From a candidate division TM6 bacterium GW2011_GWF2_37_49 (GTDB taxonomy: Bacteria > Babelota > Babeliae > Babelales > RVW-14): a DNA stretch of 64,000 nt. The stretch covers positions 85,326 through 149,325 of the forward strand of contig LBTE01000002.1 of NCBI GenBank assembly GCA_000989955.1, read 5' to 3'. A program made the position numbers and the translations under genes. This document shows, piece by piece, positions 5,480 through 31,760 of the stretch. The first letter of the stretch is position 1. Every line of letters starts with the position of its first letter. Below the pieces are notes generated by a model, which searched no databases, was not told the origin of the DNA, and was given only the letters and a program-made list of their open reading frames with translations.

Positions 5480-5710
5480 TTTTTAAAATTTAAGCAAAAT
5501 AAGCATGTTTAGGTATATTTGTAGCAAAATTACAACTTCTTAGATCATTAGAAGTTATAACAAGAATTATTTTTAAACGCAAAGCGGTTTGAATGCACTT
5601 TAACCATTTTAATATCAAATTACCCCAAAAATGTTACATTTTTTGTGAAAATGTGTATCTTGATATTTCTATTTCAAGATTAATTTTTTTATATTGTATT
5701 ATTAAAATAT

Positions 5711-5732
5711 CCTATTTACAATTATAAATAGG
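5711..5732. promoter_or_regulatory. 22-bp near-perfect palindrome upstream of CDS 5822..6352
   Basis: CCTATTTAcAATTaTAAATAGG (8+8 perfect arms) followed by GGAGGAGG. Possible operator or hairpin. Confidence 0.25.
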
Positions 5733-5821
5733 AGGAGGCAAGTTGTTTGTTGGTATAAGTTAGATTGTTTGCAATAATTTTACTGATATGAAATTTGCCG
5801 TAGTTAAAAAGGGATAGAAAG

Positions 5822-6352
5822 ATGATTTCAGCTGGTAGGATTATAAAATTTATTTTTTATATCTCTGTAGCATTACTAGTGACCAGGGGATGCTTCTTAT
5901 TCTACTATAACGTTGCGCACAAAGCTTCTCAAGATCAGATGCCGAATTCATTGGGATTTAATTTTGATAAAACCATTCTGGAAGGTACTTCAGATCAAAA
6001 TCAATGCAAGGATAGTTATAATTTTAACAGAATGTTAAGCCTTATCGATGCAAGTGAAAAGGTTAAATACATCGAGCATATGCAGTTTAGTCGTCCTGGC
6101 GAGGTTGAACGTGTGGATACTCAGACTTTAAAAGCTCTTTCCATAGCACTGAAGCTGGAAAAAAAGCGTTTAAAGCACTTTATGTGGCAGCTGCGCTCTC
6201 ATTCCAGACATTCATCGCCATCTAAGCGCATGAAAGCCTTAAAGTACTATCTGCGCGTTATCGAGCTTAATATGCAAGATATCGAAGAGGTTGTTTTTAC
6301 ACGTGAAGACTCGGGCGAATTAAAAACAACTAACCCCAAAGCTTCTGAATAA
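5822..6352 (+). CDS. Hypothetical membrane-anchored protein
   Basis: Long ORF with an N-terminal TM (IIKFIFYISVALLVTRGCFLFY). No recognisable domain. Confidence 0.5.
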   Translation: MISAGRIIKFIFYISVALLVTRGCFLFYYNVAHKASQDQMPNSLGFNFDKTILEGTSDQNQCKDSYNFNRMLSLIDASEKVKYIEHMQFSRPGEVERVDTQTLKALSIALKLEKKRLKHFMWQLRSHSRHSSPSKRMKALKYYLRVIELNMQDIEEVVFTREDSGELKTTNPKASE

Positions 6353-6370
6353 ATCTATTTTTATATGAAG

Positions 6371-6510
6371 GAGTTTTTGCAGCTTTTGGAAAAATCATCT
6401 GAAACCTAGCACCCAATCAATGCTAGCAGCTCGTATCTAAAAACTTATCAATTTGTTTGCAGGGACGATGTGTAGCTGAATTTAGGTGTGTTAGGTTGAT
6501 GTATGGCCCT
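6371..6510 (-). repeat. Dispersed intergenic repeat family, copy 3 (reverse)
   Basis: Reverse complement reads GGGCCATACATCAAC ... TTTTTAGATACGAGCTGCTAGCATTGATTGGGTGCTAGG ... CCAAAAGCTGCAAAAACTCC. Confidence 0.8.
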
Positions 6511-6659
6511 GAAAATCAAATATTTGACTAATGGTTAATAGGTAACTATTGTTATCAAGTTTTTCACAAACACAAACACTTGTTTAATTTCTGTTTTTAG
6601 ATAATATTTGGATAGTTATTTTTAATGTTTTTGTGTAAAAATTTTTTTGAGGATTTTTT

Positions 6660-7502
6660 ATGAATAAAATTATTAAGTTTCAAATTTTAATTTTTGTTGT
6701 TATGACGTTAATAAAACCAGCAGTTTGTGTTACTGAAAAAAATATTGTTCAGGGCTACTGTGCTGAGTATGCAATAAGCCAGCGAAACGCTGAACAATTT
6801 TTGAAAGAAACAATGCAATCAGTGGTTGATGATACATTGGCTGGCAAATTTAGTCCACGAGCATTGGTAGAAAAAATCAAAAATTGTCAAGTAGATTTAG
6901 TACCATATCTCAAGGAAGAAAGCATTGTTTTAATTCTAAAAAATATAAAATACAATGCAGAAATCGAAAATATGGTATCTCCAGAATTGGTGCAGGATTT
7001 ATCTGCGATATTGGAAGCCGTGGCTGATATGTACAAAGATAGCGGTATTTTGAAAGTTTTGAAGTCTGGGATAAATACTCAATCGTCAAATAAGGCGTTA
7101 AAGTATAAAATAAAAGAAATTGTTAATAAGGTTAAAAATAAAATAGAAAAAACTACAGCAGATTATATCGCTTTTCATCAACAATTGCCTAATTTGGTCA
7201 CTTCAAATGAATATTTTAACCGTGTATCCGAGTTAGATAAAGAGACAATGTTTCTTATCGATTTATTGCAAACAAACGCCCAGGACGTGATTGCACTTTG
7301 CCAAAGTGATGAAATCAAGCATTGGTACCATAAATTGGCATTTGACGACAGGGATCGCTTAAAAAAGATTGCCAGAGTCTTTATTTTAAGATTTGCATCA
7401 GAGATTATGTTGGACTCTCAATTTAAGCATGCAAGGTTCAATGCGTTGGATTTTGTTTCTATCATGTCAAAGGTGATGTCTTGTATGAAATCTTCAAATT
7501 AG
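6660..7502 (+). CDS. Hypothetical exported protein
   Basis: Signal-like N-terminus MNKIIKFQILIFVVMTLIKPAVC. No recognisable domain. Confidence 0.55.
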   Translation: MNKIIKFQILIFVVMTLIKPAVCVTEKNIVQGYCAEYAISQRNAEQFLKETMQSVVDDTLAGKFSPRALVEKIKNCQVDLVPYLKEESIVLILKNIKYNAEIENMVSPELVQDLSAILEAVADMYKDSGILKVLKSGINTQSSNKALKYKIKEIVNKVKNKIEKTTADYIAFHQQLPNLVTSNEYFNRVSELDKETMFLIDLLQTNAQDVIALCQSDEIKHWYHKLAFDDRDRLKKIARVFILRFASEIMLDSQFKHARFNALDFVSIMSKVMSCMKSSN

Positions 7503-7630
7503 GTCTTTTCGAATACGGTCTAAGTAGGTTTTGAGGAAGAAAAAGTGAAGGCATACATCAAACATAATGAGCGTCTTGATTTGTGAGGATAGCATTAAAA
7601 ATAGCCATGTCGTGAAAAAAGGATTATGGG

Positions 7631-9124
7631 ATGATCGTAGCCATTTTAAAACAAAAATTTTGTGATCATTATCGATTTTATGCTTCTCTTTTTATTTTTA
7701 TAATAATCTTATGTTGCCTGTATTTGCCGTTTTATATATGGGGTTTATTTGCCGATGATTTCGGCATAATTCGTCATGTAATGGATGTTGGTTTTAAGAA
7801 AATAGGGACCTTTTTTTATGAGGGAGAAACTTTTAGTGCAGTATTAAACCCAAATTATGTGAATACGCTTGATAATTTTTTAGGCGGTCTCTATCGTCCA
7901 ATGGTTTTCATTTATAGTCTATTGCAGGTGCATTTTTTTGGTCCAAATCCTTCAGCATATCTATTTGTGAGTATTTTTTTACACTCGCTAAATTCCGTGT
8001 TTTTATTCAACATAATTTATACGTTTGAAAAGACATTTGCGGCTGTAGTGTTAGCATTGTGTTTTGCGTTTCATTCCAGCTTATTTAATTGGCTTGGTTG
8101 GTTTTCTGGGCAGCAGTACATAATCGAATTAACCTGTCTTATTTTGATTTTATTAACACTTAAAAAATATATTGTGTCTCAAAAATATTATTTTTATTTT
8201 TTATCAATGTTTTTGTATCTCTTAAATGTTTTTCAACGAGAAATGATGGTAGTATTCCCTTTTTGGGTTGTGTTTTTTTGTAGTTTTTATAATTTTAAAG
8301 ATGACCAGATATCGTTCAATGTTATTCGTGGGCTAAAGTTATCGTGTGGTTATTTTTTTGCGTTGTTTACGTATATAATTTCTAGGGGATTAGTTTTTTC
8401 CTTCAATATAAAAACCACATCCAATGCAACTTTGATGTTTGATCTAAATTTTAAGAGTTTTATATTAAGAATGAGCGAAAGATTTTACGATTTCGTTACA
8501 ATTTTATCTGATTATCTTGGCCTAAGAATTTTGCCGCAAAATCACCAATTTGTTAAAGGTGGCTTAATTGCTATATTTATTGGCGTTTTGGTTTTTTTGT
8601 TTCTAAGAAATAGCAAAAAGGGCTTAGTTATTTTAACCTTTATTTCGTGTGTTATGTTTAGCTGGATTCCAATTTTATTGACGCATCAACCTCGTTATAT
8701 TTACGTTGGGCTCTTTTTCTTTATGATTAGTCTTGCCTTGTTGTACCATTTTTCTGACTTGAATAAAAATTGTAAAAAATGTTTATTGGTACTAGTTTTA
8801 GCTTACATATCCATTAATTATGTTTGCTTGGCACACGGAATGGAGTATTGCAGAATTAAGTACTCGTGTGCTACTGAAAAATTAAAAAAATTAGGAAGCA
8901 ACATCAACCTTATCTTGAAAAAATCAAAAAGTTTTGGGCCAATATATTTCCATAATTTACCTGCCGATTTTACTTTTGCAACAAATCAGGCAATACGTCT
9001 CTATTCTGATTGTCCTAGGCTTCAAGTTTATGAAACTGATGATAAAGCTAAATATAAAATCAATGGCATTGAGGTAACCTGGGATGATGTAAAGAATGAT
9101 TTTCATGTAGAAGTTATCCATTGA
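7631..9124 (+). CDS. GT-C fold membrane glycosyltransferase (ArnT/PMT-like), paralog 1
   Basis: About 11-13 TM. First-loop acidic motif FADDFGIIRH, then GGLYRPMVFIYSLLQVHFFGPNPSAYLFVSIFLHSLNSVFLFN. Clear paralog of 16432..18093 (VGDDYGNILH ... VYYRPMAFVFTYIQSIFFGFNPYGYFLIFILFHAINAALIFN). Confidence 0.55.
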   Translation: MIVAILKQKFCDHYRFYASLFIFIIILCCLYLPFYIWGLFADDFGIIRHVMDVGFKKIGTFFYEGETFSAVLNPNYVNTLDNFLGGLYRPMVFIYSLLQVHFFGPNPSAYLFVSIFLHSLNSVFLFNIIYTFEKTFAAVVLALCFAFHSSLFNWLGWFSGQQYIIELTCLILILLTLKKYIVSQKYYFYFLSMFLYLLNVFQREMMVVFPFWVVFFCSFYNFKDDQISFNVIRGLKLSCGYFFALFTYIISRGLVFSFNIKTTSNATLMFDLNFKSFILRMSERFYDFVTILSDYLGLRILPQNHQFVKGGLIAIFIGVLVFLFLRNSKKGLVILTFISCVMFSWIPILLTHQPRYIYVGLFFFMISLALLYHFSDLNKNCKKCLLVLVLAYISINYVCLAHGMEYCRIKYSCATEKLKKLGSNINLILKKSKSFGPIYFHNLPADFTFATNQAIRLYSDCPRLQVYETDDKAKYKINGIEVTWDDVKNDFHVEVIH

Positions 9125-9208
9125 TTTTAGTAGAAATTTTTCTTATTTCTGATATACCTTGGACAAGTTGAAATTTACTGGAATCAAATATTTTGAAAGA
9201 TTTGTTCC

Positions 9209-10600
9209 ATGGAGAGTAGTGTTTCGAACGAGTTGACTGCTCAGGAACTTGAGCTACAAATTCTTGAATTGGTTAAGCTGCATCATCTTGCGGTTAAAAA
9301 AGAGTCTTTAAAGTCTGATAATTATAAAATTCATTACGCTGGCCGATGTTATGATGAAAACGAGGTTGTAGCTGCTGTAAAAAATCTGCTCAAATTTACA
9401 TTAACTTACGGCAAGCAAGGCCTGGCATTTGAGCGGGAGCTTGCAAGGTTTGTGGGAGTGCCAAATTCATTTGTAGTTAATTCAGGCTCATCAGCAAATT
9501 TAGTTGCCATTTCTTCACTATGTTCAAACCAGCTATGTGACGAGGCGTTGAGCTATGGCGATGAAGTTATTGTTCCTGCCGCGTCTTTTCCCACAACCGT
9601 TGCTCCGATAATTCAAAACGGACTAATTCCTGTTTTTGTTGATTCAATGCTTGGTTTTTATAATCCAAGCATTGAATCAATTAAGCGGGCATACAGCCCA
9701 AAAACTCGAGCTGTTGTTTTTGCGCATACGCTTGGCAATCCTGCGCAAATTGACCAGATCAAAAATTTTTGTATCGAAAAAAATCTATTTTTGATTGAGG
9801 ATTGTTGTGATGCATTGGGCTCAAAATTTGGTGAAGCAAGGCTTGGAACATTCGGAGATCTTGCCACATTCTCATTTTATCCTGCCCATCACATAACCAT
9901 GGGGGAGGGTGGTGCTGTGGCTGTTTCAAATCCGAAATTTGCAAAAATCGTTGATTCGTTGCGTTCATGGGGCAAGGACTGTTGGTGTGTTCCTGGTGAG
10001 ACTCATTGCCAAGGTGCTTGCAGGCGTAGATTTGGAATGAAGTTTGGAGAACTGCCTTTGGGTTATGATCACAAATATGTTTATACAAATATTGGCTATA
10101 ATCTAAAGCCACTTGATTTGCAGTGCGCAATCGGGCTTGAGCAACTCAAAAAATTATCAATGTTTATCGAGAAACGAAAATACAATTTTAATTTTTTATA
10201 CGATTTTTTCAAAAATTATCAGGATTTGTTTATTTTACCACAATCTTTACCTTTGGCTGATCCATGCTGGTTTGCGTTTCCTTTGACCATTAAATCAAGT
10301 GCTGGATTTACACGACTTGAGTTAACAAAATACTTCGAAGAAAATAATATAGAAACGCGCGTTTTGTTTGCTGGGAATATTATTCGGCAACCTGCATTCA
10401 TGAATATTAAATGTAGAATTTCGGAACGCCTTGATAATTCAGATAAAATTATGCACGATTCGTTTTTTATAGGTGTTTATCCAGGTTTAACGCAAAATTG
10501 CTTAGATCGGATTACAAAGACTTTTAAAGATTTTTTAAATCAAAAAATAAGCAAAAAAATATTTTTAAAAAAATTGGGAGATAGTTGTGAAGCGGAATGA
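9209..10600 (+). CDS. rfbH: CDP-4-keto-6-deoxy-D-glucose-3-dehydrase (E1, RfbH/DdhC-like), DegT-family PMP enzyme
   Basis: DegT/DnrJ fold. His replaces the PLP lysine (SFYPAHHITMGEGG). Cys cluster C-X57-C-W-C-X6-C-X3-C (DCCDAL ... WGKDCWCVPGETHCQGACRRRFG). Sits next to rfbF and rfbG homologs. Confidence 0.8.
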   Translation: MESSVSNELTAQELELQILELVKLHHLAVKKESLKSDNYKIHYAGRCYDENEVVAAVKNLLKFTLTYGKQGLAFERELARFVGVPNSFVVNSGSSANLVAISSLCSNQLCDEALSYGDEVIVPAASFPTTVAPIIQNGLIPVFVDSMLGFYNPSIESIKRAYSPKTRAVVFAHTLGNPAQIDQIKNFCIEKNLFLIEDCCDALGSKFGEARLGTFGDLATFSFYPAHHITMGEGGAVAVSNPKFAKIVDSLRSWGKDCWCVPGETHCQGACRRRFGMKFGELPLGYDHKYVYTNIGYNLKPLDLQCAIGLEQLKKLSMFIEKRKYNFNFLYDFFKNYQDLFILPQSLPLADPCWFAFPLTIKSSAGFTRLELTKYFEENNIETRVLFAGNIIRQPAFMNIKCRISERLDNSDKIMHDSFFIGVYPGLTQNCLDRITKTFKDFLNQKISKKIFLKKLGDSCEAE

Positions 10601-11413
10601 TTTACCGGGGGGTTTGGGACGCGATTGCGCGAGGAAACTGAGTTTAGGCCAAAACCGATGGTGCCAATCGGTGGCAAGCCTATTTTGTGGCATATAATGA
10701 AATATTATTCACACTTTGGTTTTTATCGATTTATCATTTGCCTTGGATACAAAGGTGAGATGATAAAAAATTATTTTTTGAACTACAGACTTCATGACAT
10801 CGATTGTACCATTGATACAAAAACCGGAGTCGTGAGCGAACATCAGGTGAATGATGAAGGGTGGGAGATTTCGCTTGTTGATACAGGCCTTGATTGTATG
10901 ACTGGCGGGCGTGTTGCGCGAGCTGCTCGATATGTTGATACGAAGCGATTTTTGTTAACTTACGGAGATGGCCTTGCTGATGTTAATATTTCGGAGTTAC
11001 TAAATTTTCATATTTCTCACGGCAAACTTGCAACTCTAACCGGAGTTAATCTACCGTCTCGTTTTGGCAACTTACTTATAAATGACGATCAAGTCCTTGC
11101 ATTTCTCGAAAAAAAACAGGTTAGCGATGAATGGATTAATGGTGGTTTTTTTGTACTAGAACGCGATTTTTTGAATTATGTATCTACTGATTCAAGCTGT
11201 GTTCTTGAGCAGCAACCGTTGGCAAATTCTGCTGCTGATGGGCAATTAATGGTGTATAAACATTCTGGTTTTTGGCAGTGCATGGATACATTGCGCGAAC
11301 GAGATTTGCTTGAAAAATTATGGGAAATAAAAGCTCCTTGGAAAGTATGGGCTGATGTTGAAAAAATTTATAAACCCGCCACGAAAGAGCAGTCACACCG
11401 CTTACAATTCTAA
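10587..11413 (+). CDS. rfbF: Glucose-1-phosphate cytidylyltransferase (RfbF/DdhA-like), 5' end frameshifted at the G6 tract
   Basis: Body reads [55 protein letters not shown], typical of RfbF. The GGxGTRL signature is encoded upstream of the only in-frame start (TTG 10625). The reconstructed N-terminus is [17 protein letters not shown] if one G is added or a -1 slip occurs. Confidence 0.75.
10607..10612 (+). promoter_or_regulatory. G6 homopolymer at the 5' end of rfbF (frameshift / phase-variation candidate)
   Basis: ACCGGGGGGTTT. It separates a GTG-initiated frame (10587, SD GGGAG at 10576-10580) from the main rfbF frame. In that frame it forms a G_GGG_GGT X_XXY_YYZ heptamer. Confidence 0.6.
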
Positions 11414-11433
11414 TTTTTTACGGGGATGAGTAG

Positions 11434-12468
11434 ATGGAGAATGAGTTCAAATATTGGAAAGATAAAAATGTTTTTATTACCGGGGTTACTGGCTTACTTG
11501 GTCCATGGCTTATAAAAGAGTTGTTGAGTCAAGACGCAAATGTTTTTGTTCTTGTTCGCGATTTTGTTGCAGATTCAACATTTTTTACTGAAGGCCTTGA
11601 TAAAAAAACTAACGTTATTTTAGGGGATTTGCTTGATTTTAGCTTGTTACAGCGTGTTTTAAATGAATTTGATATAAACACTGTTTTTCATTTAGGAGCT
11701 CAGGCAATTGTTGGCATTGCAAACCGTTCACCAATTTCCACTTTCCGTTCGAATATTGAAGGATCGTGGAATTTACTCGAGGCTTGCAGGCTTTCGCCCT
11801 GGGTAAAAAAAATAGTTGTAGCCTCCAGTGACAAGGCTTACGGCGCTCAAGAAAAACTGCCGTACAAGGAAGATGCGCCGATGCAAGGTCGTCATCCGTA
11901 TGATGTTTCCAAAAGTTGCACAGATTTACTGGCGCAGTCGTATTTTCACACATATCAGCTTCCGGTTTGCGTGACGCGATGTGGTAATTTTTTTGGTGGA
12001 GGCGATTTGCATTTAAACCGAATTATACCTGGAACTATAAAAAGCGTTCTTCAAGAACAGCGTCCAATTATACGATCTAATGGGTTATTTATTCGAGATT
12101 ATATTTACGTAAAAGATGTTGTGGACGCATATTTAACATTAGCAGAAAAAATGGATGACAGCTCAATTGTGGGGCAGTGTTTTAATTTTAGTACAGATCA
12201 ACCTTTTAATGTAATTCAAATTGTTGAACTAATTCTTGATGTTATGGGGTGTAAGCATTTAAATCCGATAATTCAAAATCAGGCGAGCAATGAGATTCCA
12301 GAGCAGCACCTTTGTTCGGAAAAGGCGCGTAATATTTTAGGATGGCGTGCAAAATACGGTGTGTGTGCGGGTCTTGGTGAGACTGTGGAGTGGTATAAAA
12401 AATTTTTATCAAATCAAAGCGTCTTGGTTTTAAATGAAAAAAATTTCAATCGTAGCAGCGTGTTATAA
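11434..12468 (+). CDS. rfbG: CDP-glucose 4,6-dehydratase (RfbG/DdhB-like), extended SDR
   Basis: YWKDKNVFITGVTGLLGPWL, VFHLGAQAIVGIANRSPISTFRSNIEGSWNLLEA, SSDKAYG, HPYDVSKSC (YxxxK), RCGNFFGGGDLHLNRIIP. Confidence 0.7.
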   Translation: MENEFKYWKDKNVFITGVTGLLGPWLIKELLSQDANVFVLVRDFVADSTFFTEGLDKKTNVILGDLLDFSLLQRVLNEFDINTVFHLGAQAIVGIANRSPISTFRSNIEGSWNLLEACRLSPWVKKIVVASSDKAYGAQEKLPYKEDAPMQGRHPYDVSKSCTDLLAQSYFHTYQLPVCVTRCGNFFGGGDLHLNRIIPGTIKSVLQEQRPIIRSNGLFIRDYIYVKDVVDAYLTLAEKMDDSSIVGQCFNFSTDQPFNVIQIVELILDVMGCKHLNPIIQNQASNEIPEQHLCSEKARNILGWRAKYGVCAGLGETVEWYKKFLSNQSVLVLNEKNFNRSSVL

Positions 12469-13372
12469 CGAATCCGGTAATATCGAAAGCATGTATCAAC
12501 GAGTTAAGAATGTTTTTGACGGTTCGGCCTACGATTTTGAGCTGATTTATGTTGATAACGCTAGTACAGACAATTCTAGAAATGTTTATGAACAAGTTGT
12601 GCAAGCCGATGATCGTGTAAAAGTTTTGTTGATGTCGCGTAATTTTGGATCATCGCAGCCAAGTTTTTTTGCTGGAATTAGGCAAGCGTCCGGTGATGCC
12701 GTTATTTTGATTGATGGCGATTTGCAAGACCCACCAGAACTTATTTCTGAATTTTTAAAAAAATATGAAGATGGATACGATGTTGTTTATGGCGTCAGAA
12801 TAAAGCGAATGGGTGGTGTTTTGCGTCGCATTGGATACAAGTGTTTTTATCGTGTTTTTCGATGGCTTTCGTATATCGAGATGCCCGTTGATGCTGGCGA
12901 TTTTGGGTTGATGAGCAGTCGGGTTGTGGATGTTATAAAAATTTTGAATGAAAAAGACTTGTATTTGCGAGGTCTTCGAGCCTGGGCCGGGTTTAAGCAG
13001 ATTGGCGTTGATTATACTCGACAAGATCGTAATGTTGGCAAAACAAGCAATAGCTTTCTTGCAAATTTTACCTGGGCAAAAAAGGCCATCACAAATTTTT
13101 CGTACAAACCGCTTGAGTTTATATCGAAACTGGCAATTAGTGCAGTGTTTGCGACATTTGTCGCAATGCTAGTTTATTTATATCTTTATTTTAAAACCGA
13201 CGCACCGCGTGGTTTTTCTACTTTATTAATGGTGATGTTTATATTTGGAACAATCCAGCTTTTGGCGTTGAGTATAATCGCAGAATATTTAATCAGAATT
13301 TTTCAAGAAGTTAAAAATAGGCCACCATACATAATTTCTGAAATTTTAGAAAAAAGGGATAAAAATGATTAA
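12434..13372 (+). CDS. GT2 polyprenyl-phosphate glycosyltransferase (ArnC/GtrB/DPM1-like)
   Basis: ISIVAACYNESGNI, YVDNASTDNS, SRNFGSSQPSFFAGIRQASGDAVILIDGDLQDPPELI, plus two C-terminal TM helices (ISAVFATFVAMLVYLYLYF, LLMVMFIFGTIQLLALSIIAEY). Confidence 0.8.
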   Translation: MKKISIVAACYNESGNIESMYQRVKNVFDGSAYDFELIYVDNASTDNSRNVYEQVVQADDRVKVLLMSRNFGSSQPSFFAGIRQASGDAVILIDGDLQDPPELISEFLKKYEDGYDVVYGVRIKRMGGVLRRIGYKCFYRVFRWLSYIEMPVDAGDFGLMSSRVVDVIKILNEKDLYLRGLRAWAGFKQIGVDYTRQDRNVGKTSNSFLANFTWAKKAITNFSYKPLEFISKLAISAVFATFVAMLVYLYLYFKTDAPRGFSTLLMVMFIFGTIQLLALSIIAEYLIRIFQEVKNRPPYIISEILEKRDKND

Positions 13373-14351
13373 TTATTTGATTACGGGCGGAACAGGGTTC
13401 ATAGGCTCAAACCTGGTTCGTCGTTTAGTTTTATACGAAGCTGGTAATGTTTTTTTAATTGCGGAAAACAATGCGGATTTGTGGCGGTTGAATGATATTA
13501 TTTCGGAGTTGACCGTATTTTACGTAGATTTGGCTGATTTTAAAAATATAAATAGTATTGTTAAATCAGTAAATCCAGACGTTGTTTTTCATCTAGCTTC
13601 TTACGGAGGTCTGCCGCTTCAGTCAGAGCAGCGTAAGATTTTTGATATAAATTTTTATGGTACAGTCAATCTTTTGAATGCATGCAAAGATGTTGGTTTT
13701 GATTGCTTTATCAACACCGGAAGCTCATCTGAATACGGCATGAAGGATTCTGCGATGCATGAGTCTGACGTTGTTTTGCCGATCAGTGATTATGGCGTTT
13801 CAAAGGCTGCAGCGACTCAATTTTGTGTTAAGGAGGCTATTTTTAATAAATTGCCAGTTTATACACTGCGGCCATTTTCAGTTTACGGTGACTATGAGAT
13901 GCAAAACCGCCTTATATCCACTGTTTTGACTAGTGCGTTGACGCATAATCAAATCAATTTATCTTCTGAATCATGCGTGCGCGATTTTATTTATGTTCAA
14001 GACATTGTTGATCTTTATTTAAAAATAGCAGCAGTTAAACCCGCTCGAGATTTTGTTTTTAACGGTGGAACTGGTATACAATCAACAATTAAGGATGTTG
14101 TTGAAGTGGTTGAATCTTTGATTGGATCAAGTTTAAATGTTAGCTGGAATACTTCATTGCCAAGGCCATGGGAGCCAAAAAATTGGAAAGCGAATATTGA
14201 TCTTGCTTTAAATGTATTGAATTGGCAGCCAAAATATTCTTTGCAGCGTGGGTTATCACAATCTTTAAATTGGTTTAAAAATAATCTAAATTTTTATGTG
14301 AAAAATTATGAAGACGTTAAATCTTGCCGAGAAAAATCGAGCTCTTTGTAA
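13365..14351 (+). CDS. NAD(P)-dependent sugar epimerase/4-ketoreductase (extended SDR)
   Basis: LITGGTGFIGSNLVRRL Rossmann motif. SSSEYG and YGVSKAAA (YxxxK). Confidence 0.75.
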   Translation: MINYLITGGTGFIGSNLVRRLVLYEAGNVFLIAENNADLWRLNDIISELTVFYVDLADFKNINSIVKSVNPDVVFHLASYGGLPLQSEQRKIFDINFYGTVNLLNACKDVGFDCFINTGSSSEYGMKDSAMHESDVVLPISDYGVSKAAATQFCVKEAIFNKLPVYTLRPFSVYGDYEMQNRLISTVLTSALTHNQINLSSESCVRDFIYVQDIVDLYLKIAAVKPARDFVFNGGTGIQSTIKDVVEVVESLIGSSLNVSWNTSLPRPWEPKNWKANIDLALNVLNWQPKYSLQRGLSQSLNWFKNNLNFYVKNYEDVKSCREKSSSL

Positions 14352-15144
14352 AAAGGCCCAAGAAGTCAGGCTTTCGATTTTAGATATGGTGACTAATGCA
14401 AAGAGTTCTCACATCGGATCTGCATTTTCAATTGTTGAAATTTTGACAATTATTTACAACGAATTTATGAGTACAAATTTAATTAAAAATAAGGCCAAAA
14501 ATCGCGATTATTTTATTTTGAGCAAAGGGCATGCTGCATCGGCATTTTATGCGACCCTTGCAAGCGTTGGAATTGTTAGTTCGGATCTGTTGAGTACATT
14601 CTATCAAGACGGCAGCGTATTGGCTGGTCATCCGACAAAGGACTGTGTTGCTGGAGTTGAGGCAAGCACCGGCTCGCTTGGACATGGGTTGTCGATGGCA
14701 GTTGGAATAGCGTTTGCATGCAAGCAAGATGGCCTGTCCAGCAAGGCTTATGTCTTGCTTGGCGATGGCGAGTGTCAGGAAGGTTCTGTGTGGGAGGCCG
14801 TTATGCTTGCAGTGCGCTTAAAGTTGAATAATTTAATTATAATAATTGATAGCAATAAATTACAGGGTTTTGATAGAACAGAAGATCTTTTGCCTTCCAG
14901 TCTTAAAAACATGTTTGAGGGTTTTGGTTGCAACTGTTTATCTGTTGACGGGCATGATTTTATTGAGCTGAGAACAGCTATAGGATTTTGCGGCCAAACA
15001 CACGGCCCAGATGTTATTATTGCTAACACGATAAAGGGCAATGGTGTAAGTTTTATGCAAGATAAATTGGAATGGCACTACAAGTCATTGAGCCCGGAGC
15101 AATACATTTTAGCAAAAAATGAAATTTTGAAACATAAGATTTGA
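14308..15144 (+). CDS. Transketolase, N-terminal (ThDP-binding) subunit
   Basis: SSHIGSAFSIVEIL, LSKGHAASAFYATLA, STGSLGHGLSMAVGIA, LLGDGECQEGSVWEA, IIIDSNKLQ. Confidence 0.85.
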   Translation: MKTLNLAEKNRALCKKAQEVRLSILDMVTNAKSSHIGSAFSIVEILTIIYNEFMSTNLIKNKAKNRDYFILSKGHAASAFYATLASVGIVSSDLLSTFYQDGSVLAGHPTKDCVAGVEASTGSLGHGLSMAVGIAFACKQDGLSSKAYVLLGDGECQEGSVWEAVMLAVRLKLNNLIIIIDSNKLQGFDRTEDLLPSSLKNMFEGFGCNCLSVDGHDFIELRTAIGFCGQTHGPDVIIANTIKGNGVSFMQDKLEWHYKSLSPEQYILAKNEILKHKI

Positions 15145-15288
15145 GGTCCGTTCGTACCAATTCTACGTTGCTCAGGGCGAACGGGACTAAAAAGCCGTTC
15201 ATGGTGAGCGTAGCCGCTTGCGGCGAAGTCGAAATATGGCGGAGCCAAATCCATACGAACGAGAATATGAGATCAAAGTGCTTATGCT
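15145..15288 (+). other. GC-rich, hairpin-rich intergenic segment between the two transketolase halves (candidate structured RNA or nested insertion)
   Basis: GTCCGTTCG (15146-15154) pairs with CGAACGGGAC (15178-15187). CGTTCGTA (15149-15156) pairs with TACGAACG (15254-15261). GCCG-CTTG-CGGC tetraloop hairpin at 15213-15224. 10-nt direct repeat TGCTCAGGGC at 15169-15178 and 15285-15294. Confidence 0.35.
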
Positions 15289-15440
15289 CAGGGCTATACA
15301 TCGATGATTATGATCAAAGCGTTAGAGTGCATCGGCTCTGCCAATAAATTTATAAATTTTATGCATCGGCCTGCAAAGCGTTTGCTGGCGCGGAGTTACA
15401 ATAACAAATTTTAAAAATTACAAAAAGTGCCACAGCCTTT
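15289..15440 (+). repeat. Dispersed intergenic repeat family, copy 4 (forward)
   Basis: CAGGGCTATACATCG ... CATCGGCTCTGCCAAT ... TTTTATGCATCGGCCTGC ... AAAAATTACAAAAAGTGCCACAGCC. A second partial core (TTTTGAATGCGGCTG) follows at 15463-15477. Confidence 0.75.
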
Positions 15441-15503
15441 GAATGGCTTGATTGAATCAATGTTTTGAATGCGGCTGTTTTATCGATTGGAGCGTATGTT
15501 TTT

Positions 15504-16466
15504 ATGAGAACGACTTTTATTAAAAAATTAATTGAATTAGCTGAGGTTGATCCAAATATTTACTTGATGATTGGAGATTACGGATTTTCTGTTGTTGAGC
15601 CGTTTAAGGAAAAGTTTAATTCAAGATTTATTAACGCTGGCATAAGCGAGCAAAATATGATTGGTGTTGCAGCAGGTCTTGCACTTGCAGGTAAAAAGGT
15701 TTTTGTTTATTCGATTGTGCCGTTTGTTACGATGCGTTGTTTTGAACAGGTCAGAATTGATTTGTGTTATCAAAACCTTCCTGTGCGAATTATTGGAATA
15801 GCTGCTGGGTTTGCCTTTGGGCCTGCAGCTTCAACACATCATTCAATTGAAGATATAGCGCTTATGAGTTGTTTGCCAAACATGACAGTTATTAGTCCTG
15901 CAAATAGTTTTGATCTGGAGGCGCTTTTGCCGCAGGCAAATAATTTACCAGGTCCAGTTTATTTCAGGCTTGGCAGAGGTGGCTCTGGAATGGCCTATCC
16001 AGCTTTTCAAAATATTGAATTATCAAGGCCTGCAGAGATATTAAAAAGTGATAAAGTTTTATTTTTGGTGACGGGCGAAATTTTTTCTGTGGCTTTCGAT
16101 ATTGTTAAAAAATTGCGTGATTTTGGTCTTGATTGTGGACTGATTAATGTTCATACGATAAAACCGTTAAAACTTGATTTTATTTTATCAAAAGCAAATT
16201 TTTTGCAAGCAATTTTTACAATTGAAGAACATGGATTAGTTGGTGGTCTTGGCCAACAAGTTGCCAATTTTTTGTGCCAAAATTTGGATAAGAAAATTAT
16301 ATTCAAGACGTTTACTGCGGCGGATCAATATTTTCACGAAATCGGTTCACGCGATTATTTGCTAAAAAAATCAGGGTTGGAGGTTGAAGCTATTTGTTCG
16401 GAAGTGTTGCATATTTTAGGAACGAGAGAAAATGTTATTGAAAAAGTTAAGCAATATTATTTGTAA
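15504..16466 (+). CDS. Transketolase, C-terminal (pyrimidine-binding) subunit
   Basis: FINAGISEQNMIGVAAGLALAGKKVFVYSIVPFVTMRCFEQVRIDL, HHSIEDIALM. The ATG at 15504 is preferred over the TTG at 15465, which lies inside a repeat fragment. Confidence 0.85.
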   Translation: MRTTFIKKLIELAEVDPNIYLMIGDYGFSVVEPFKEKFNSRFINAGISEQNMIGVAAGLALAGKKVFVYSIVPFVTMRCFEQVRIDLCYQNLPVRIIGIAAGFAFGPAASTHHSIEDIALMSCLPNMTVISPANSFDLEALLPQANNLPGPVYFRLGRGGSGMAYPAFQNIELSRPAEILKSDKVLFLVTGEIFSVAFDIVKKLRDFGLDCGLINVHTIKPLKLDFILSKANFLQAIFTIEEHGLVGGLGQQVANFLCQNLDKKIIFKTFTAADQYFHEIGSRDYLLKKSGLEVEAICSEVLHILGTRENVIEKVKQYYL

Positions 16467-18093
16467 CCATTTGTTTTTGTTTATAGCGGTTTTTGGAATT
16501 GTGTTTGCCTCTTTAACGCTGCCATTTGGATATTGGGGTTTTGTGGGCGATGATTACGGCAATATCCTGCATTCACAACTGCAAAGTTGGTCCGATTTTA
16601 TCAAATTATTTTATGAGGGCGATGCCTGTTCTTTTTATCAAGCTTCAAATTATGTTCCATCAGAACCAAATTTTTTTAGCGTTTATTACCGGCCGATGGC
16701 CTTTGTGTTTACGTACATTCAATCTATTTTTTTTGGTTTTAATCCGTATGGTTATTTTTTGATTTTTATCCTGTTTCATGCGATAAATGCTGCATTAATT
16801 TTTAACATTTTTAGTTGGTTTATCCCTTTGGGATGGGCTTTTTTGATGGCCTTATTTTTCGCATTTCACATTAGTTTGGGAAGCTGGTTTGGGTGGTTGC
16901 CAGCATTCCAGCAGATTATAAATCTAACATTGTTGTTACTGATTTTAATTTTACTCAAGCAGTATCTTAAAACACGGGAAATTTTTTATTATGTTGGTGC
17001 GGTTTTTTTGTTTTTGGTATCATTGTTTAACAGAGAAACATTTTTAGTATTCCCATTTTTGTTAACTTTGGGAGTAATTATTTTTCGAGATAAAGCCGAA
17101 ACTTTGTGCCACTCGGTATTTCGCGCTATAAAAATTAGTGCATGTTTTTGGCTTGCATTCAGTGTTTATTTTTATACACGCCTTTATTTTTTTCCAATAA
17201 AATTTGTACATTCAGGTCTATGTTTTCATGACGGAGTAATTAGTGTAAGCAATCGTTTTTTAGAAGCAGTTTCATTTTTGTCTGATTTATTTGGGCTGTC
17301 TTTTATGCCTGCTGGTCATAGATTATGCAAAGGCGTTTTGATTATTTCAATTTTTACTTTGATTTTCACGTTATTTTTAAAGAATGAACAAATTAAAAGA
17401 CTATCATTTTTAGCCTTTTCTTTACTTGCTTTTATGTGGCCGGCTTTTTTGACGCATTATCTTCCCAGATCATTGTATGAATCAGCACTTTTTTTGTTTT
17501 GTTTAATTTTAATTTTTCTTTTTAAATACAGCACAATTGATTGTTTTGGGTTTCAGATTGTTAAAAAATTTATATTTGGTCTTGGCGTTTTTATGTGTGC
17601 ATTTTTCATGATAAAAAGCATGAAAACATCAGAGCAATTAATTTTAAAAATTAATACAGCGTTCGCTGAGCTATGTCTGAATAAAAGCATTATCAATAAG
17701 CCTCTTTGCTTTGTTGAATTGCCGTGTAGTTTTATCGCAACCGGCGTGGCTCAAGCGGTTTGGATGCGTGGAGTTAATAAAGGGTTGCCAATTTTTGAAT
17801 TACAATTACCAATCAAAGTTTTTAAAGAAGAGTGGAATAAAATTATTCCGATGCATAAAAGATTTGTAAATATTGAAGTGGTTAACACGGGATTGCGAGC
17901 AGTTGCATGCTTGCCGAATGTTTTATGTTTTGATGTTACGCCTGGTGCTCAAAATATTTTAATAAATAAGACTGTTCGTGGAAATGTTGTTGATGTTTTT
18001 TTACCTTTAAGCGACAAATGGCCGATGGACAGGCTTGTGTTTATCGGTTGGGATTATGATGCTTTTAAATTTAAAATTTTGAATGGTGTTTAA
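16432..18093 (+). CDS. GT-C fold membrane glycosyltransferase (ArnT/PMT-like), paralog 2
   Basis: See 7631..9124. Same DD loop motif, YRP motif and TM architecture. Confidence 0.55.
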   Translation: MLLKKLSNIICNHLFLFIAVFGIVFASLTLPFGYWGFVGDDYGNILHSQLQSWSDFIKLFYEGDACSFYQASNYVPSEPNFFSVYYRPMAFVFTYIQSIFFGFNPYGYFLIFILFHAINAALIFNIFSWFIPLGWAFLMALFFAFHISLGSWFGWLPAFQQIINLTLLLLILILLKQYLKTREIFYYVGAVFLFLVSLFNRETFLVFPFLLTLGVIIFRDKAETLCHSVFRAIKISACFWLAFSVYFYTRLYFFPIKFVHSGLCFHDGVISVSNRFLEAVSFLSDLFGLSFMPAGHRLCKGVLIISIFTLIFTLFLKNEQIKRLSFLAFSLLAFMWPAFLTHYLPRSLYESALFLFCLILIFLFKYSTIDCFGFQIVKKFIFGLGVFMCAFFMIKSMKTSEQLILKINTAFAELCLNKSIINKPLCFVELPCSFIATGVAQAVWMRGVNKGLPIFELQLPIKVFKEEWNKIIPMHKRFVNIEVVNTGLRAVACLPNVLCFDVTPGAQNILINKTVRGNVVDVFLPLSDKWPMDRLVFIGWDYDAFKFKILNGV

Positions 18094-18237
18094 AAGTACT
18101 AAGCGAATTATTTTTGTGTATGCTGAGTCAATATAAAATCAATCGATTTTGGTAATAAAAAATTATTAATTTTAGCATTAATTATATATACTTTTGATTT
18201 GTGAAATTTAATAGACTTTTTATTCTTTCTCTGGGAG

Positions 18238-19908
18238 ATGAGGGTGAGTGTAATTGATAAATTAAATAAAGTTTTAGATGGCCGTACCAAATTTATAACA
18301 GTTACTGGTGGCGTATGTTCATCGATTGGGAAAGGCGTTTTGGTTTCCTCTCTTGGCGTATTGCTGGAAAAGGCTGGATATACCGTGTCCGTTGTAAAGT
18401 GGGATCCATACTTAAATGTTGATCCCGGAACAATGTCACCGCTTGAGCATGGTGAAGTGTTTGTAACGTCGGATGGTGCTGAGACAGATCTTGACCTTGG
18501 GCACTACGAGAGAATGTTGGGAATCCATCTTACAAAGACGTCATCTGTTTCGTCTGGACAAATATTTGAATCATTGATTAAGGGGGAACGAGAAGGCAAG
18601 TTTCTTGGGCGATGCATCCAACTTATTCCACACGTCGTAAGTTCAATAAAAGAGAGATTGTTGGATTTTGCGCTAGAAAAAGATGTCGATTTTGTTTTGA
18701 CTGAAATTGGTGGAACGGTTGGTGACATGGAAGGTGACATTTTTTTGGAAGCTGTAAGGCAAATTCGTTTGGATTTGGGCAATAATCGTTTTTTGCATTG
18801 TCATTTGAGCTATGTTCCTTATTTAAGTTGGGCAAATGAGACGAAAACAAAGCCTACACAACACAGCGTCTATAATTTAAAGGGCATGGGATTAGTTCCG
18901 GATGCATTGTTTTTACGTGCGGACAGATCTGTTGGAGTCAGTCCGTGCGAAAAGCTTTCTGTGATGTGTGGAGTGAATCGCGATTATATTTTTCAAGCAT
19001 TAACACATAAACCCATTTACAAGCTTTTTATTGATTTGAATGAGCAGGGTGTAAGTCAAAAAGTTCAGGAATATTTTGGCTTAGAGCCAAGAAGGCCTGA
19101 TTTGACTGGGTGGAAAAAGTTTATTGAGTTAATTGAGGGCAGCAAAAAAGAGGTTAAAATTGGACTTGTAGCAAAATACGTTGGCAGCAATGATCCATAC
19201 ATCAGTGTTATTGAGGCTATTGAGTCTGCTGGATATTGGAATGGTGTTAAGGTTAATCTGATTGTTCTTGAAGCCGAACAGATTGAAAAGCACAAATCAA
19301 ATCCGAATGAAACGGTTATGCAGTTGTTACGTTCTGTTGATGGAATAGTTATTCCAGGCGGATTTGATATGCGCGGAGTTGAGGGCAAAATTTTTGCTGC
19401 AAATTGGGCCAGAGAGAACAATGTTCCTTATCTGGGGCTGTGTTTGGGTATGCAGATTATGTTGATTGAGTTTGCCCGTTCAGTGCTTGGTATGACTGAT
19501 GCTAGCAGTACTGAATTTAATAAAAACACCACACACCCAGTGATATCAATGCTTGCTGAGCAGCAGGGTATTGCTCAAAAGGGTGCAACAATGAGGCTTG
19601 GAACATATCCTTGCCGTATTGTTGCTGGAACAAAGGCCCATCAGGCATATTGCCAAGATTTGGTCCAGGAAAGACATCGTCACAGATATGAGTTCAATAA
19701 CGCTTATCGTAGCGAATTTGAGGCAGCTGGGGTGGTGTTTTCTGGAATATATGAAGAAAAGAATTTAGTGGAAATGGCGGAATTGAAGAGCCACCAATTT
19801 ATGCTTGGGTCACAATTTCATCCAGAATTTACATCGAGGCCACTTTCTGTAAACCCATTATTTATGGCTTTTATGAAGGCCGTTGTGAACTGGCAAAAAT
19901 GGCGTTAG
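18238..19908 (+). CDS. pyrG: CTP synthase
   Basis: KFITVTGGVCSSIGKGVLVSSLG, DPYLNVDPGTMSPLEHGEVFVTSDGAETDLDLGHYER, GLCLGMQ, QFHPEF. Confidence 0.95.
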   Translation: MRVSVIDKLNKVLDGRTKFITVTGGVCSSIGKGVLVSSLGVLLEKAGYTVSVVKWDPYLNVDPGTMSPLEHGEVFVTSDGAETDLDLGHYERMLGIHLTKTSSVSSGQIFESLIKGEREGKFLGRCIQLIPHVVSSIKERLLDFALEKDVDFVLTEIGGTVGDMEGDIFLEAVRQIRLDLGNNRFLHCHLSYVPYLSWANETKTKPTQHSVYNLKGMGLVPDALFLRADRSVGVSPCEKLSVMCGVNRDYIFQALTHKPIYKLFIDLNEQGVSQKVQEYFGLEPRRPDLTGWKKFIELIEGSKKEVKIGLVAKYVGSNDPYISVIEAIESAGYWNGVKVNLIVLEAEQIEKHKSNPNETVMQLLRSVDGIVIPGGFDMRGVEGKIFAANWARENNVPYLGLCLGMQIMLIEFARSVLGMTDASSTEFNKNTTHPVISMLAEQQGIAQKGATMRLGTYPCRIVAGTKAHQAYCQDLVQERHRHRYEFNNAYRSEFEAAGVVFSGIYEEKNLVEMAELKSHQFMLGSQFHPEFTSRPLSVNPLFMAFMKAVVNWQKWR

Positions 19909-20073
19909 AATCTTTTGTTTACAGATAGTATTTTTATAATTGATAAATTCATTTTTTGCGTAAATTTAGTTTGACCGGAGGTTTTTTTTGGCTTAAACTC
20001 GTGGAAGTCTTTCTTATTTTTAAGTGCAGAGATAGATATTTGATTTTTTGAACTGCGAAAAAGGTTTTGTACC

Positions 20074-20511
20074 ATGGATATGAATAAAGATATGAATAAA
20101 AGTTTTGTTTTAAAAAATGAAGAGCGAAATCCTCAATGGCGTAAAATTGATGCTACAGGGCAGGTTTTAGGCCGTCTATGCACACAGATAGCTGATGCAT
20201 TGAGGGGCAAAGATAGGCCTACATACACTCCTCACACCGATTCAGGAGATTACATTGTAGTTACAAACTGTGAAAAGATTGTTCTTACAGGTAATAAGTG
20301 GGACGGTAAAATATACGTCCATCACACTGGCTGGAGAAGTGGATACAAAGAAAGAACGGCTAAGCAGGTTTTGGCTAAAGATCCTCGAAATTTAATCATT
20401 CACGGTGTTAAAGGTATGTTGCCAAAGAATAAGCTTAATCGACAAGTGATCAAAAAGTTGAAAGTTTATGTTGGAGATGCTCATCCTCACAAGGCACAAC
20501 TTCAAGATTAA
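20074..20511 (+). CDS. rplM: 50S ribosomal protein L13
   Basis: WRKIDATGQVLGRLCTQIADALRGKDRPTYTPHTDSGDYIVVTN ... HHTGWRSGYKERT ... GMLPKNKL. Confidence 0.95.
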   Translation: MDMNKDMNKSFVLKNEERNPQWRKIDATGQVLGRLCTQIADALRGKDRPTYTPHTDSGDYIVVTNCEKIVLTGNKWDGKIYVHHTGWRSGYKERTAKQVLAKDPRNLIIHGVKGMLPKNKLNRQVIKKLKVYVGDAHPHKAQLQD

Positions 20512-20540
20512 GTTTTCATAATTTTGAATAATGAAATTAG

Positions 20541-20577
20541 TGGAACAGGTCTGGTTCGTCCAGCTTGTTCCATTTTT
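20541..20577 (+). terminator. Intrinsic terminator after rplM
   Basis: TGGAACAGG(t)CTGG-ttcgt-CCAGCTTGTTCCA, a 13-bp stem with one bulge and one G.U pair, followed by TTTTT. Confidence 0.7.
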
Positions 20578-20592
20578 ACTTTAAGGGTGTAA

Positions 20593-24146: not shown

Positions 24147-24194
24147 ATTTAATTCCACAAAAAACTCGATATTATGCATCATTGACTAATTAAT

Positions 24195-24273: not shown

Positions 24274-24416
24274 CGGCTATACATTGACATTGATCATTAA
24301 AAGCCATGACTTCATCGGCTTTGCCAAGGAATTGATAATTTTTTAGATGCGGGCTGCCAGAATTGATCTGGACGTAGTTGTGGAGATAATTTTTTAAAAA
24401 TTGCAAAAAGTGGCTT
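24274..24416 (+). repeat. Dispersed intergenic repeat family, copy 5 (forward)
   Basis: CGGCTATACATTGAC ... CTTCATCGGCTTTGCCAAGGAATTGATAATTTTTTAGATGCGGGCTGCCAG ... AAAAATTGCAAAAAGTGGC. Confidence 0.85.
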
Positions 24417-24421
24417 TGTTT

Positions 24422-31590: not shown

Positions 31591-31745
31591 CAGGGATACA
31601 TCATGTGTGTTGTTGTAATTGCCCGATTCTATGCGTTGTGGGTAAAAATTGGTAATTTTTTAGATGCGGCCTGCTGGCATTGATTGGGTGTGGGCTAGCG
31701 AATAAAGTTTTTGAAAATTGCAAAAACTGCCACTGCTTTTAAAAC
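31591..31745 (+). repeat. Dispersed intergenic repeat family, copy 6 (forward)
   Basis: CAGGGATACATCATG ... TTTTTTAGATGCGGCCTGCTGGCATTGATTGGGTGTGGGCTAGCGAATAA ... GAAAATTGCAAAAACTGCC. Confidence 0.85.
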
Positions 31746-31760
31746 GCACGAACTAATCGA

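Follow-up and report, generated by a model that had tools for sequence, protein, structure and literature searches.

A cytidine diphosphate-sugar cassette with a GtrB/ArnC-type glycosyltransferase and two GT-C-fold membrane proteins in a TM6 bacterium: probably a new version of three-component periplasmic glycosylation

What does a bacterium make with a set of cytidine diphosphate (CDP)-hexose genes that encloses a polyprenyl-phosphate glycosyltransferase and is itself enclosed by two large membrane proteins? The question is raised by positions 7631–18093 of a 64,000-nucleotide stretch of DNA (hereafter the window) from the candidate division TM6 bacterium GW2011_GWF2_37_49 (contig LBTE01000002.1, positions 85,326–149,325 of the forward strand). 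An original prediction had read this locus as a lipid-carrier glycosylation system, in which a sugar from a CDP-dideoxyhexose pathway is loaded onto a polyprenyl phosphate and then transferred outside the cytoplasm by two membrane enzymes of the glycosyltransferase C (GT-C) fold class. We followed up this reading by computation, and the locus is known here from its sequence and from predicted structures. It is, in our view, a real and probably new version of the three-component periplasmic glycosylation scheme. The new elements are a CDP-sugar pathway equipped with a thiamine-dependent enzyme and a GT-C family that has no name, while the underlying logic is already known. That the genes form a single operon whose products glycosylate targets outside the cytoplasm by way of a lipid-linked monosaccharide, with a donor drawn from the CDP-hexose pathway and in the manner of the Gtr, Arn and mycobacterial arabinan systems, is a reading that we find somewhat easier to accept than to doubt.

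The locus consists of nine open reading frames (ORFs) on the plus strand, in the order that had been given, and the assigned families hold in searches with Pfam and NCBIfam; the Pfam scans covered every ORF of at least 120 amino acids in the window. SDR stands for short-chain dehydrogenase/reductase, and GT2 for the glycosyltransferase family of that number.

7631..9124, plus strand: GT-C A, predicted GT-C paralogue, a polytopic membrane protein of 497 amino acids with a short C-terminal periplasmic domain
9209..10600, plus strand: rfbH, E1 CDP-6-deoxy-4-keto-hexose 3-dehydrase (NF011936)
10587..11413, plus strand: rfbF, glucose-1-phosphate cytidylyltransferase (TIGR02623), 5′ end disrupted in this assembly, remaining ORF 10625–11413
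11434..12468, plus strand: rfbG-like NDP-hexose 4,6-dehydratase, an SDR (best NCBIfam match TIGR02622)
12434..13372, plus strand: GtrB/ArnC-type polyprenyl-phosphate glycosyltransferase (GT2) with two C-terminal membrane helices (Pfam Glycos_transf_2)
13365..14351, plus strand: second SDR, reductase or epimerase (Pfam Epimerase, GDP_Man_Dehyd)
14308..15144, plus strand: tktN, transketolase-like N subunit of a thiamine-diphosphate enzyme (Pfam Transketolase_N)
15145..15503, no strand: non-coding spacer of 359 bp between tktN and tktC, absent in relatives
15504..16466, plus strand: tktC, transketolase-like C subunit of a thiamine-diphosphate enzyme, 320 amino acids (Pfam Transket_pyr, Transketolase_C)
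16432..18093, plus strand: GT-C B, predicted GT-C paralogue of 553 amino acids with a beta-rich C-terminal periplasmic domain

The start of tktC had been placed at 15465, and is corrected here to the ATG at 15504. The genes are closely packed at five of their eight junctions, four of which are overlaps (rfbG/GT2, 35 nt; GT2/second SDR, 8 nt; second SDR/tktN, 44 nt; tktC/GT-C B, 35 nt) and one a gap of 20 nt, which is the pattern expected of, and consistent with, a single operon. The GT2 gene in particular is embedded among the sugar-pathway genes, with which its reading frame overlaps. Scans for promoters and terminators returned background level only, and Rfam searches over positions 5000–21000 gave nothing beyond chance-level matches. 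The tktN–tktC spacer is without an Rfam match, its predicted fold is no more stable than that of shuffled controls (z +0.96), and at 15409–15443 it includes part of a dispersed intergenic repeat; relatives have no such spacer, their two genes directly adjoining or overlapping.

Are these genes kept together elsewhere? A genome-neighbourhood comparison, which had been proposed as a check, shows that synteny across genomes links the GT-C family with the GT2 and with the genes for the CDP-sugar. The block RfbF–RfbG–GT2–SDR–TktN–TktC is kept at 49–84% protein identity in four other loci, namely L013 and L019 (metagenome-assembled genomes labelled uncultured Pseudomonadota), L030 (a 1.35-Mb contig) and L031, and is partly kept in L008 and in the Babeliales contig L029; in whole or in part it is shared by at least six other genomes. 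A GT-C gene of the same family lies directly after the block or less than 2 kb away in L008, L013, L019 (where it is split into three ORFs), L029 (a fragment only) and L030. The order SDR–TktN–TktC is retained in seven loci of distant lineages, and the second SDR, which always adjoins the transketolase-like pair, is 51–59% identical in L008, L013, L019, L030 and L031. For the RfbG-like dehydratase the identity is 71–84% in the four loci with the full block and 68% to the fragment that ends L029. About 30 metagenomic contigs carry homologues of both TktN and the GT2 (paired by identical lengths), and the cassette was confirmed in all three that were looked up. Contigs of Dependentiae and Babeliales have, independently of the cassette, arrays of two to five GT-C genes of this family in tandem beside a GT2. 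The robust unit is thus a GT2 with several GT-C paralogues, to which a CDP-sugar cassette is joined in one lineage. The GT2s of the cassettes are 59–74% identical to one another and only about 33% identical to those of the Dependentiae arrays.

The two flanking membrane proteins had been taken for paralogous GT-C transferases, and on both points the follow-up agrees. They share 30% identity over about 500 residues (E 3e-53), and their AlphaFold models, with a mean predicted local distance difference test (pLDDT) of 89.5 and a predicted template modelling score (pTM) of 0.91 for GT-C A and 78.8 and 0.83 for GT-C B, both have the GT-C fold. When these models were compared with the PDB by Foldseek, the top 32 matches of GT-C A (best E 1.1e-5, TM-score at most 0.52) and the top 30 of GT-C B (best E 5.4e-6) were all GT-C enzymes, and for both models the matches remained exclusively GT-C until noise was reached. 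Those of GT-C A include PglB, STT3, AglB, DPY19, ArnT, ALG12, Pmt4 and AftA; ALG9, PMT and Emb also appear among the matches of the pair. On the predicted structures, both proteins are GT-C-fold glycosyltransferases of a family without a name. An identity as Wzy, WaaL or another polymerase was also considered for the membrane proteins and was rejected, because all significant structural matches are GT-C enzymes.

A closer placement was not obtained. Neither protein has a match in Pfam or NCBIfam, neither finds a PDB chain as a single sequence, and a profile built from 106 sequences of the family finds none either. The suggested assignment to PMT_2, GT39 or GT83 consequently found no support, as the pair matches neither PF02366 nor PF13231 nor ArnT; there is no detectable sequence similarity to GtrC (YfdI) or ArnT, and the pair is therefore placed in the fold class only. 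Among 60 family members, five match Pfam PMT_2 (best E 1.3e-6). Alignment of the family profile with E. coli ArnT by hhalign gave a probability of 1%, a result that is uninformative, probably because the ArnT template consisted of one sequence only. GT-C A scores 440 bits against the hidden Markov model (HMM) of the family. A word-indexed search of 5.8 billion proteins brought up only 11 relatives of the pair, and an exhaustive profile search of cluster representatives brought up 263 at E <1e-30, 16,340 at E <1e-10 and 52,063 at E <1e-3, so that the family is real and has a very large remote superfamily. The family figures prominently among Dependentiae as well as in Proteobacteria-like genomes of uncultured bacteria that are apparently host-associated. 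Its members share the motif WGF-x2-DD-x-G directly behind the first transmembrane segment, with D41 at least 90% conserved in the 106 sequences, together with Y86-R87-P88 (the YRP motif), H116 and E202, of which R87, P88 and E202 are invariant. The N-terminus is rich in lysine and positively charged and the DD pair lies in the first loop past the first transmembrane segment, as expected for a periplasmic GT-C active site; judging from this charge, the first loop would face the periplasm.

Two side observations concern the outskirts of this family. Remote relatives in Verrucomicrobia and Myxococcales carry C-terminal tetratricopeptide repeats (L020, 3557–5227; L021, 9794–11464; L022, 9731–12097), and in this they presumably resemble the eukaryotic TMTC protein O-mannosyltransferases. 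A 10-kb contig binned as Candidatus Helarchaeota (L028) has a GT2 and four complete tandem GT-C copies, with part of a fifth at its end; since every other strong member of the family (HMM score >200 bits) is bacterial, the contig may be mis-binned.

The GT2 encoded between the dehydratase and the second SDR had been called an ArnC/GtrB-type polyprenyl-phosphate transferase, and this description is borne out by full-length alignments: it is a member of the membrane-anchored class and not a soluble processive synthase. Its best full-length NCBIfam match is PgfS (217 bits), and ArnC also matches over the full length (135 bits). Its alignment with E. coli ArnC runs from end to end (27% identity, E 7e-43), that with E. 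coli GtrB (YfdH) is stronger still (E 7e-51), and both take in the two C-terminal membrane helices. The protein has a GT-A catalytic domain with a DxD-type motif, the sequence DGDLQDPPE and C-terminal hydrophobic segments at residues 227 and 260. The NCBIfam scores stay under the equivalog cut-offs (500 bits for PgfS and 529 for ArnC), which indicates a member of the class and not an orthologue of any characterised enzyme. That this GT2 takes a CDP-sugar as its donor is suggested by gene order and synteny.

How much of a CDP-dideoxyhexose pathway is present? RfbH is a genuine E1 3-dehydrase, as had been proposed, for it passes the cut-off of NF011936 (582 against 423 bits) and has the E1 signatures, namely the AHH motif with histidine in place of the pyridoxal phosphate-binding lysine and an iron–sulfur-type cysteine motif of the [2Fe-2S] kind, C200-x57-C258-x-C260-x6-C267. 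RfbF reaches 321 bits against TIGR02623 (cut-off 300), with a match that begins at profile position 15. The best NCBIfam match of the RfbG-like SDR is CDP-glucose 4,6-dehydratase (TIGR02622), with 201 bits where 278 are required. The prediction of a CDP-3,6-dideoxyhexose pathway thus stands for the E1 and, going by the best family matches, probably for the two enzymes before it; it does not stand in full, as no E3 reductase is encoded in the window, the start of rfbF is lost in this assembly and the dideoxy step is not part of the conserved core. Among the loci examined RfbH occurs in the window and in L013 only, which makes 3-deoxygenation an optional addition, and methyltransferases take its place in L019, L029 and L031.

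The damage to rfbF is small and well delimited. Apart from 16 bp (GGTGATGATTTTGGCG), contig L001 agrees with the window at every one of 21,646 aligned bases, without a mismatch; the 16 bp are intact in L001 and missing from the window, where they would follow position 10606. These bases comprise the start codon (ATG) of rfbF and the codons for the opening residues of MILAGGFGTRL, its conserved N-terminus, and their absence shifts the frame; the remainder of rfbF is in frame with rfbH and follows directly behind the single TGA stop of the latter. The first in-frame start that is left, a TTG at 10625, lies past the nucleotide-binding signature GGFGTR. The rfbF-like ORF predicted at 10625 is thus right in family (TIGR02623) and 5′-truncated by comparison with L001, and the difference is either an assembly error or a null allele in the sampled population.

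The most unusual component is the transketolase-like pair. Its Pfam domains and thiamine-diphosphate residues agree with the predicted N and C subunits, but it is not a canonical transketolase. When the pairs of four cassettes are aligned with E. coli TktA, whose numbering is used here, the residues for thiamine diphosphate and magnesium are conserved (H26, H66, H100, GDG...N, the cofactor-activating glutamate E411, and H473), while the sugar-phosphate and acceptor residues have been lost in all four, an outcome that is alignment-dependent: R358 is replaced by G, S385 falls in a gap, H461 is A or G, and D469 is A, Y, M or L. R520 is kept in the window protein and in none of the other three pairs. 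The scores against the NCBIfam transketolase models, 251 and 147 bits, lie far below the cut-off of 488 bits in both cases. The loss of R358, S385, H461 and D469 makes a pentose-phosphate enzyme unlikely. Precedents for another role are found in the literature. The thiamine enzyme YerE branches CDP-3,6-dideoxy-4-keto-glucose on the way to yersiniose, and in the routes to the nucleoside antibiotics miharamycin and amipurimycin, split-gene transketolases are the enzymes proposed to branch a keto sugar with a hydroxyacetyl group; all 13 predicted cases of such split transketolases belong to Streptomyces secondary metabolism, none of them tested in vitro (review, PMC12247030). With these precedents a C-branched deoxysugar is a plausible candidate for the product of the locus. 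Our literature search for a transketolase together with a cytidylyltransferase or rfbH in polysaccharide loci returned nothing relevant.

Put together, the parts suggest the following course. RfbF would make CDP-glucose, and the RfbG-like dehydratase would convert it into CDP-4-keto-6-deoxyglucose, from which, in this genome, E1 RfbH and a reductase encoded elsewhere may take off the 3-hydroxyl. The two-subunit thiamine-diphosphate enzyme would put a two-carbon unit, donated by pyruvate or a ketose, on the keto sugar, and the second SDR would reduce a keto group to yield a C-branched (3,)6-deoxyhexose of the yersiniose type. The order of these steps is itself part of the proposal. The GtrB/ArnC-type GT2 could then load undecaprenyl phosphate at the cytoplasmic face with this sugar, or with one of its intermediates, taken from CDP, the lipid-linked sugar would be flipped by a protein that is not among the genes of the locus, and the two GT-C paralogues might transfer it to two different periplasmic acceptor sites, be it on the lipopolysaccharide core or O-chain, on another glycan or on a protein.

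What speaks for this proposal, apart from the synteny, is that the window offers little else that might use a CDP-sugar. The absence of Wzx, Wzy, WaaL and a priming transferase, first stated for the locus, extends in the Pfam scans to the whole 64 kb; the only other glycosyltransferase there is a GT9 heptosyltransferase 10 kb away, and no further transferase is available to consume the sugar. None of the three findings that the original prediction had named as refuting it turned up: the membrane pair has the GT-C fold, the GT2 is of the membrane-anchored kind, and a Wzx/Wzy cluster that would account for the genes conventionally does not adjoin them in the window. The lipid-carrier reading is upheld to this degree, and for its central step, from CDP-sugar to undecaprenyl phosphate, it leans on synteny.

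Several observations weigh against it. The same scans reveal no flippase of the GtrA, SMR, ArnE/F, MATE or Wzx type in the window, and phmmer searches with E. coli GtrA, ArnE and ArnF found no match in the window or in 20 related loci. An E3 reductase (RfbI/AscD) is likewise missing from the scans, and tblastn of the window with the E3-like protein of L013, a ferredoxin-NADP-reductase-like protein encoded next to its rfbH, gave no match (best E 0.62). In this assembly rfbF has no start codon. The TM-scores of both membrane models are modest (0.35–0.52), and neither protein has a sequence-level link to any solved GT-C. L031 has the cassette with no GT-C within 9 kb, and the Dependentiae arrays of GT2 and GT-C occur without CDP genes, which means that this module does not need the CDP pathway. 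Finally, we know of no GtrB/ArnC/DPM1-class enzyme that takes a CDP-sugar, and a literature search for one found none.

Part of this evidence would fit an operon that houses two independent functions, in which the substrate of the GT2 and the GT-C proteins is a common sugar (e.g., glucose from UDP-glucose) carried on undecaprenyl phosphate, and the CDP-sugar is used by a conventional cytoplasmic glycosyltransferase encoded elsewhere. To our knowledge, the characterised GtrB/ArnC/DPM1-type enzymes all take UDP- or GDP-sugars, and both the CDP-free arrays of Dependentiae and the cassette of L031 would be accommodated. L030, moreover, has GT4 genes and a Wzx-like Polysacc_synt gene immediately downstream, so that at least one relative does show a tie to conventional glycan synthesis. 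We nevertheless regard such a division of labour as unlikely, given that the 4,6-dehydratase and the second SDR flank the GT2 in every cassette locus and in the window overlap it in reading frame, that the distance of the cassette GT2s from those of the Dependentiae arrays is compatible with a different donor, and that the 64 kb hold no other candidate transferase. The transketolase-like pair, in turn, might be a housekeeping split transketolase present by chance, in which case the sugar would be an ordinary 3,6-dideoxyhexose without a branch. Annotated transketolases of Clostridium and Sporomusaceae share about 50% identity with TktN, and the best NCBIfam matches are transketolase models; yet the four lost residues in all four cassette pairs, the scores far under the cut-offs and the retention of the SDR–TktN–TktC order across distant lineages leave this idea very little room.

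A further explanation concerns this genome alone: the locus may be decaying or inactive here, so that the sugar is not made, whatever relatives do. The rfbF deletion, the absent E3 and the tktN–tktC spacer together make an impaired pathway in this genome a real possibility. The only start left for rfbF comes after GGFGTR, L013 has an E3-like gene beside its rfbH where the window has none, the 359-bp insertion is absent in relatives, and the GT-C of L019 is broken into three ORFs. Against decay, the intact 16 bp of L001 suggest that the deletion may be a minority variant or an assembly error, all ORFs except rfbF are of full length, and the spacer is no bar to expression. E1-type dehydrases, furthermore, can work with general cellular reductases, as SpnQ does. 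On balance we consider decay rather improbable. At the other extreme stands a bolder version of the lipid-carrier proposal, in which GT-C arrays assemble an entire surface glycan in the periplasm, sugar by sugar, from a single C-branched deoxysugar that is derived from CDP and linked to undecaprenyl phosphate. This is a long shot. If true, Gram-negative bacteria and Dependentiae would have their own equivalent of mycobacterial arabinan synthesis, one that operates without a Wzx/Wzy or ABC-transporter pathway, and a polyprenyl-phosphate carrier would for the first time be seen to receive its sugar from CDP.

The surroundings of the locus are largely housekeeping in character (pyrG, rplM, lpxC, gyrA, ruvB, murB and ftsK among others). 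In two relatives the cassette adjoins HSP20, in L031 also an amidase gene and MurB, and follows a methyltransferase (L019, 1419–4219; L031, 3075–6977). In the window the amidase–MurB–HSP20 neighbourhood is found at 49454–54293, 35 kb from the cassette, which adjoins pyrG instead, and these differing placements indicate that the cassette has moved within the lineage. Eukaryote-like proteins are encoded in the window at 1408–2490 (minus strand, ankyrin repeats) and 31819–32991 (minus strand, a serpin C-terminal match), and the cassette-bearing relative L030 has two TLC ATP/ADP translocases at 3932–6784; such genes suggest a host-associated or intracellular lifestyle of the lineage.

Other features of the window are recorded for completeness. 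Directly downstream of lpxC, on the opposite strand, stand three tandem paralogous ORFs (21472–22488, 22496–23323 and 23310–24182, minus strand) of 275–338 amino acids with three to four hydrophobic segments each and no Pfam match. Two tandem paralogous P-loop kinase-like genes, resembling chloramphenicol phosphotransferase or zeta toxin, occupy 44457–45305 and 45336–46133, and behind them lies a perfect 33-nt inverted repeat (46154–46225). A dispersed intergenic repeat of the window forms a family of about 75–120 nt, present in both orientations, with the conserved core AATGCGGCCTGCCAGCATTGA...TTGCAAAAA; it could be a repetitive extragenic palindromic (REP)-like element or a miniature inverted-repeat transposable element (MITE)-like one, or else a common regulatory or terminator module. 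Its copies are as follows.

1247–1365, 2686–2804, 24316–24434, 31633–31751 and 42144–42216: dispersed repeat, direct orientation
6372–6470, 34027–34073, 50943–51040 and 61647–61744: dispersed repeat, inverted orientation

What would follow if the preferred reading, one operon for glycosylation through a lipid-linked CDP-derived sugar, is true? Three-component glycosylation by way of a lipid carrier would extend to CDP-activated rare sugars, and split transketolase-like enzymes, hitherto only proposed to act in the branching of Streptomyces antibiotics, would have a role in the cell envelope. A GT-C family would be newly defined, whose clusters number about 260 at E <1e-30 and whose remote relatives run into the tens of thousands, and its occurrence in Dependentiae and host-associated genomes points to unexplored surface decoration in intracellular and symbiotic bacteria. 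The locus also offers enzymes for making tertiary-alcohol branched sugars.

It remains to place the locus among known systems. In the Gtr system (the flippase GtrA, the undecaprenyl-phosphate-glucose synthase GtrB and a serotype-specific GT-C) and in the related pentofuranose system of Citrobacter youngae, on which family GT136 was founded (PMC11127046), a GtrB-like GT2 is likewise combined with GT-C-fold transferases, and a single sugar linked to a lipid phosphate is used outside the cytoplasm. Unlike Gtr, our locus lacks a GtrA, SMR or MATE flippase gene and has GT-C proteins without sequence similarity to GtrC (YfdI), and it adds a dedicated CDP-sugar pathway and two GT-C paralogues, of which relatives have up to five. 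The Arn operon for lipid A (ArnB, C, A, D, T, E and F) resembles the locus in uniting nucleotide-sugar tailoring, an ArnC-type GT2 and a GT-C, and ArnT is among the structural matches of GT-C A (5f15, E 6.3e-4, TM-score 0.48). It differs in that its sugar is activated by UDP and not by CDP, and ArnA, B, D, E and F are absent here, as is any detectable sequence homology to ArnT. The Pgf operon for protein O-glycosylation in Streptococcus mutans consists of pgfS (GT-A), pgfM1 (GT-C), the epimerase gene pgfE and pgfM2 (GT-C) (PMC5856776; bioRxiv 10.1101/2024.05.05.592596). Like our locus it encodes, within a single operon, two membrane proteins of the GT-C kind along with one GT-A and an enzyme that modifies the sugar, and PgfS is the best match of the GT2. 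PgfM1 and PgfM2, however, are of the YfhO family, to which the window proteins have no match, and Pgf takes a UDP-HexNAc, while the host of our locus is Gram-negative.

On the side of the sugar, the route to CDP-3,6-dideoxyhexoses and yersiniose runs through RfbF/DdhA, RfbG/DdhB, RfbH/E1 and RfbI/E3, and then through YerE and YerF for the C-4 branch (PMC12247030). The locus follows it with a true E1 and then a thiamine-diphosphate enzyme with a reductase, as when yersiniose A is formed from CDP-3,6-dideoxy-4-keto-glucose, and before these with an RfbF that is 5′-truncated in this assembly and a dehydratase that is RfbG-like by its best match. It departs from it in having no E3, in a thiamine enzyme that is a split transketolase-like pair and not a YerE-type decarboxylase, and in a product that is apparently passed to a polyprenyl-phosphate GT2 and not to a Leloir transferase building a Wzx/Wzy repeat unit. 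With the split transketolases of miharamycin and amipurimycin biosynthesis it has in common a two-subunit enzyme that lies among sugar-tailoring genes and likely has a keto sugar as acceptor; here, in contrast, the setting is the cell envelope of uncultured Gram-negative and Dependentiae bacteria. The mycobacterial arabinan and mannan systems, with decaprenyl-phosphate-arabinose (DPA) and polyprenyl-phosphate-mannose (PPM) as donors and the Emb, Aft and Mpt GT-C enzymes, are similar in that several paralogous GT-Cs draw on one monosaccharide linked to a lipid phosphate, and AftA and Emb are among the structural matches of the window proteins; the donor pathway is another one, the GT-Cs are much smaller than Emb, and the locus gives no evidence for polymerisation. 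The remark that no characterised system was known to combine these parts therefore has to be narrowed, as the architecture is familiar from Arn, Pgf and Citrobacter. Set against these and Gtr, the locus is distinguished by its CDP-sugar source, its thiamine-dependent step, its want of a recognisable flippase, and a GT-C family that has no sequence link to GtrC, ArnT, YfhO or PMT.

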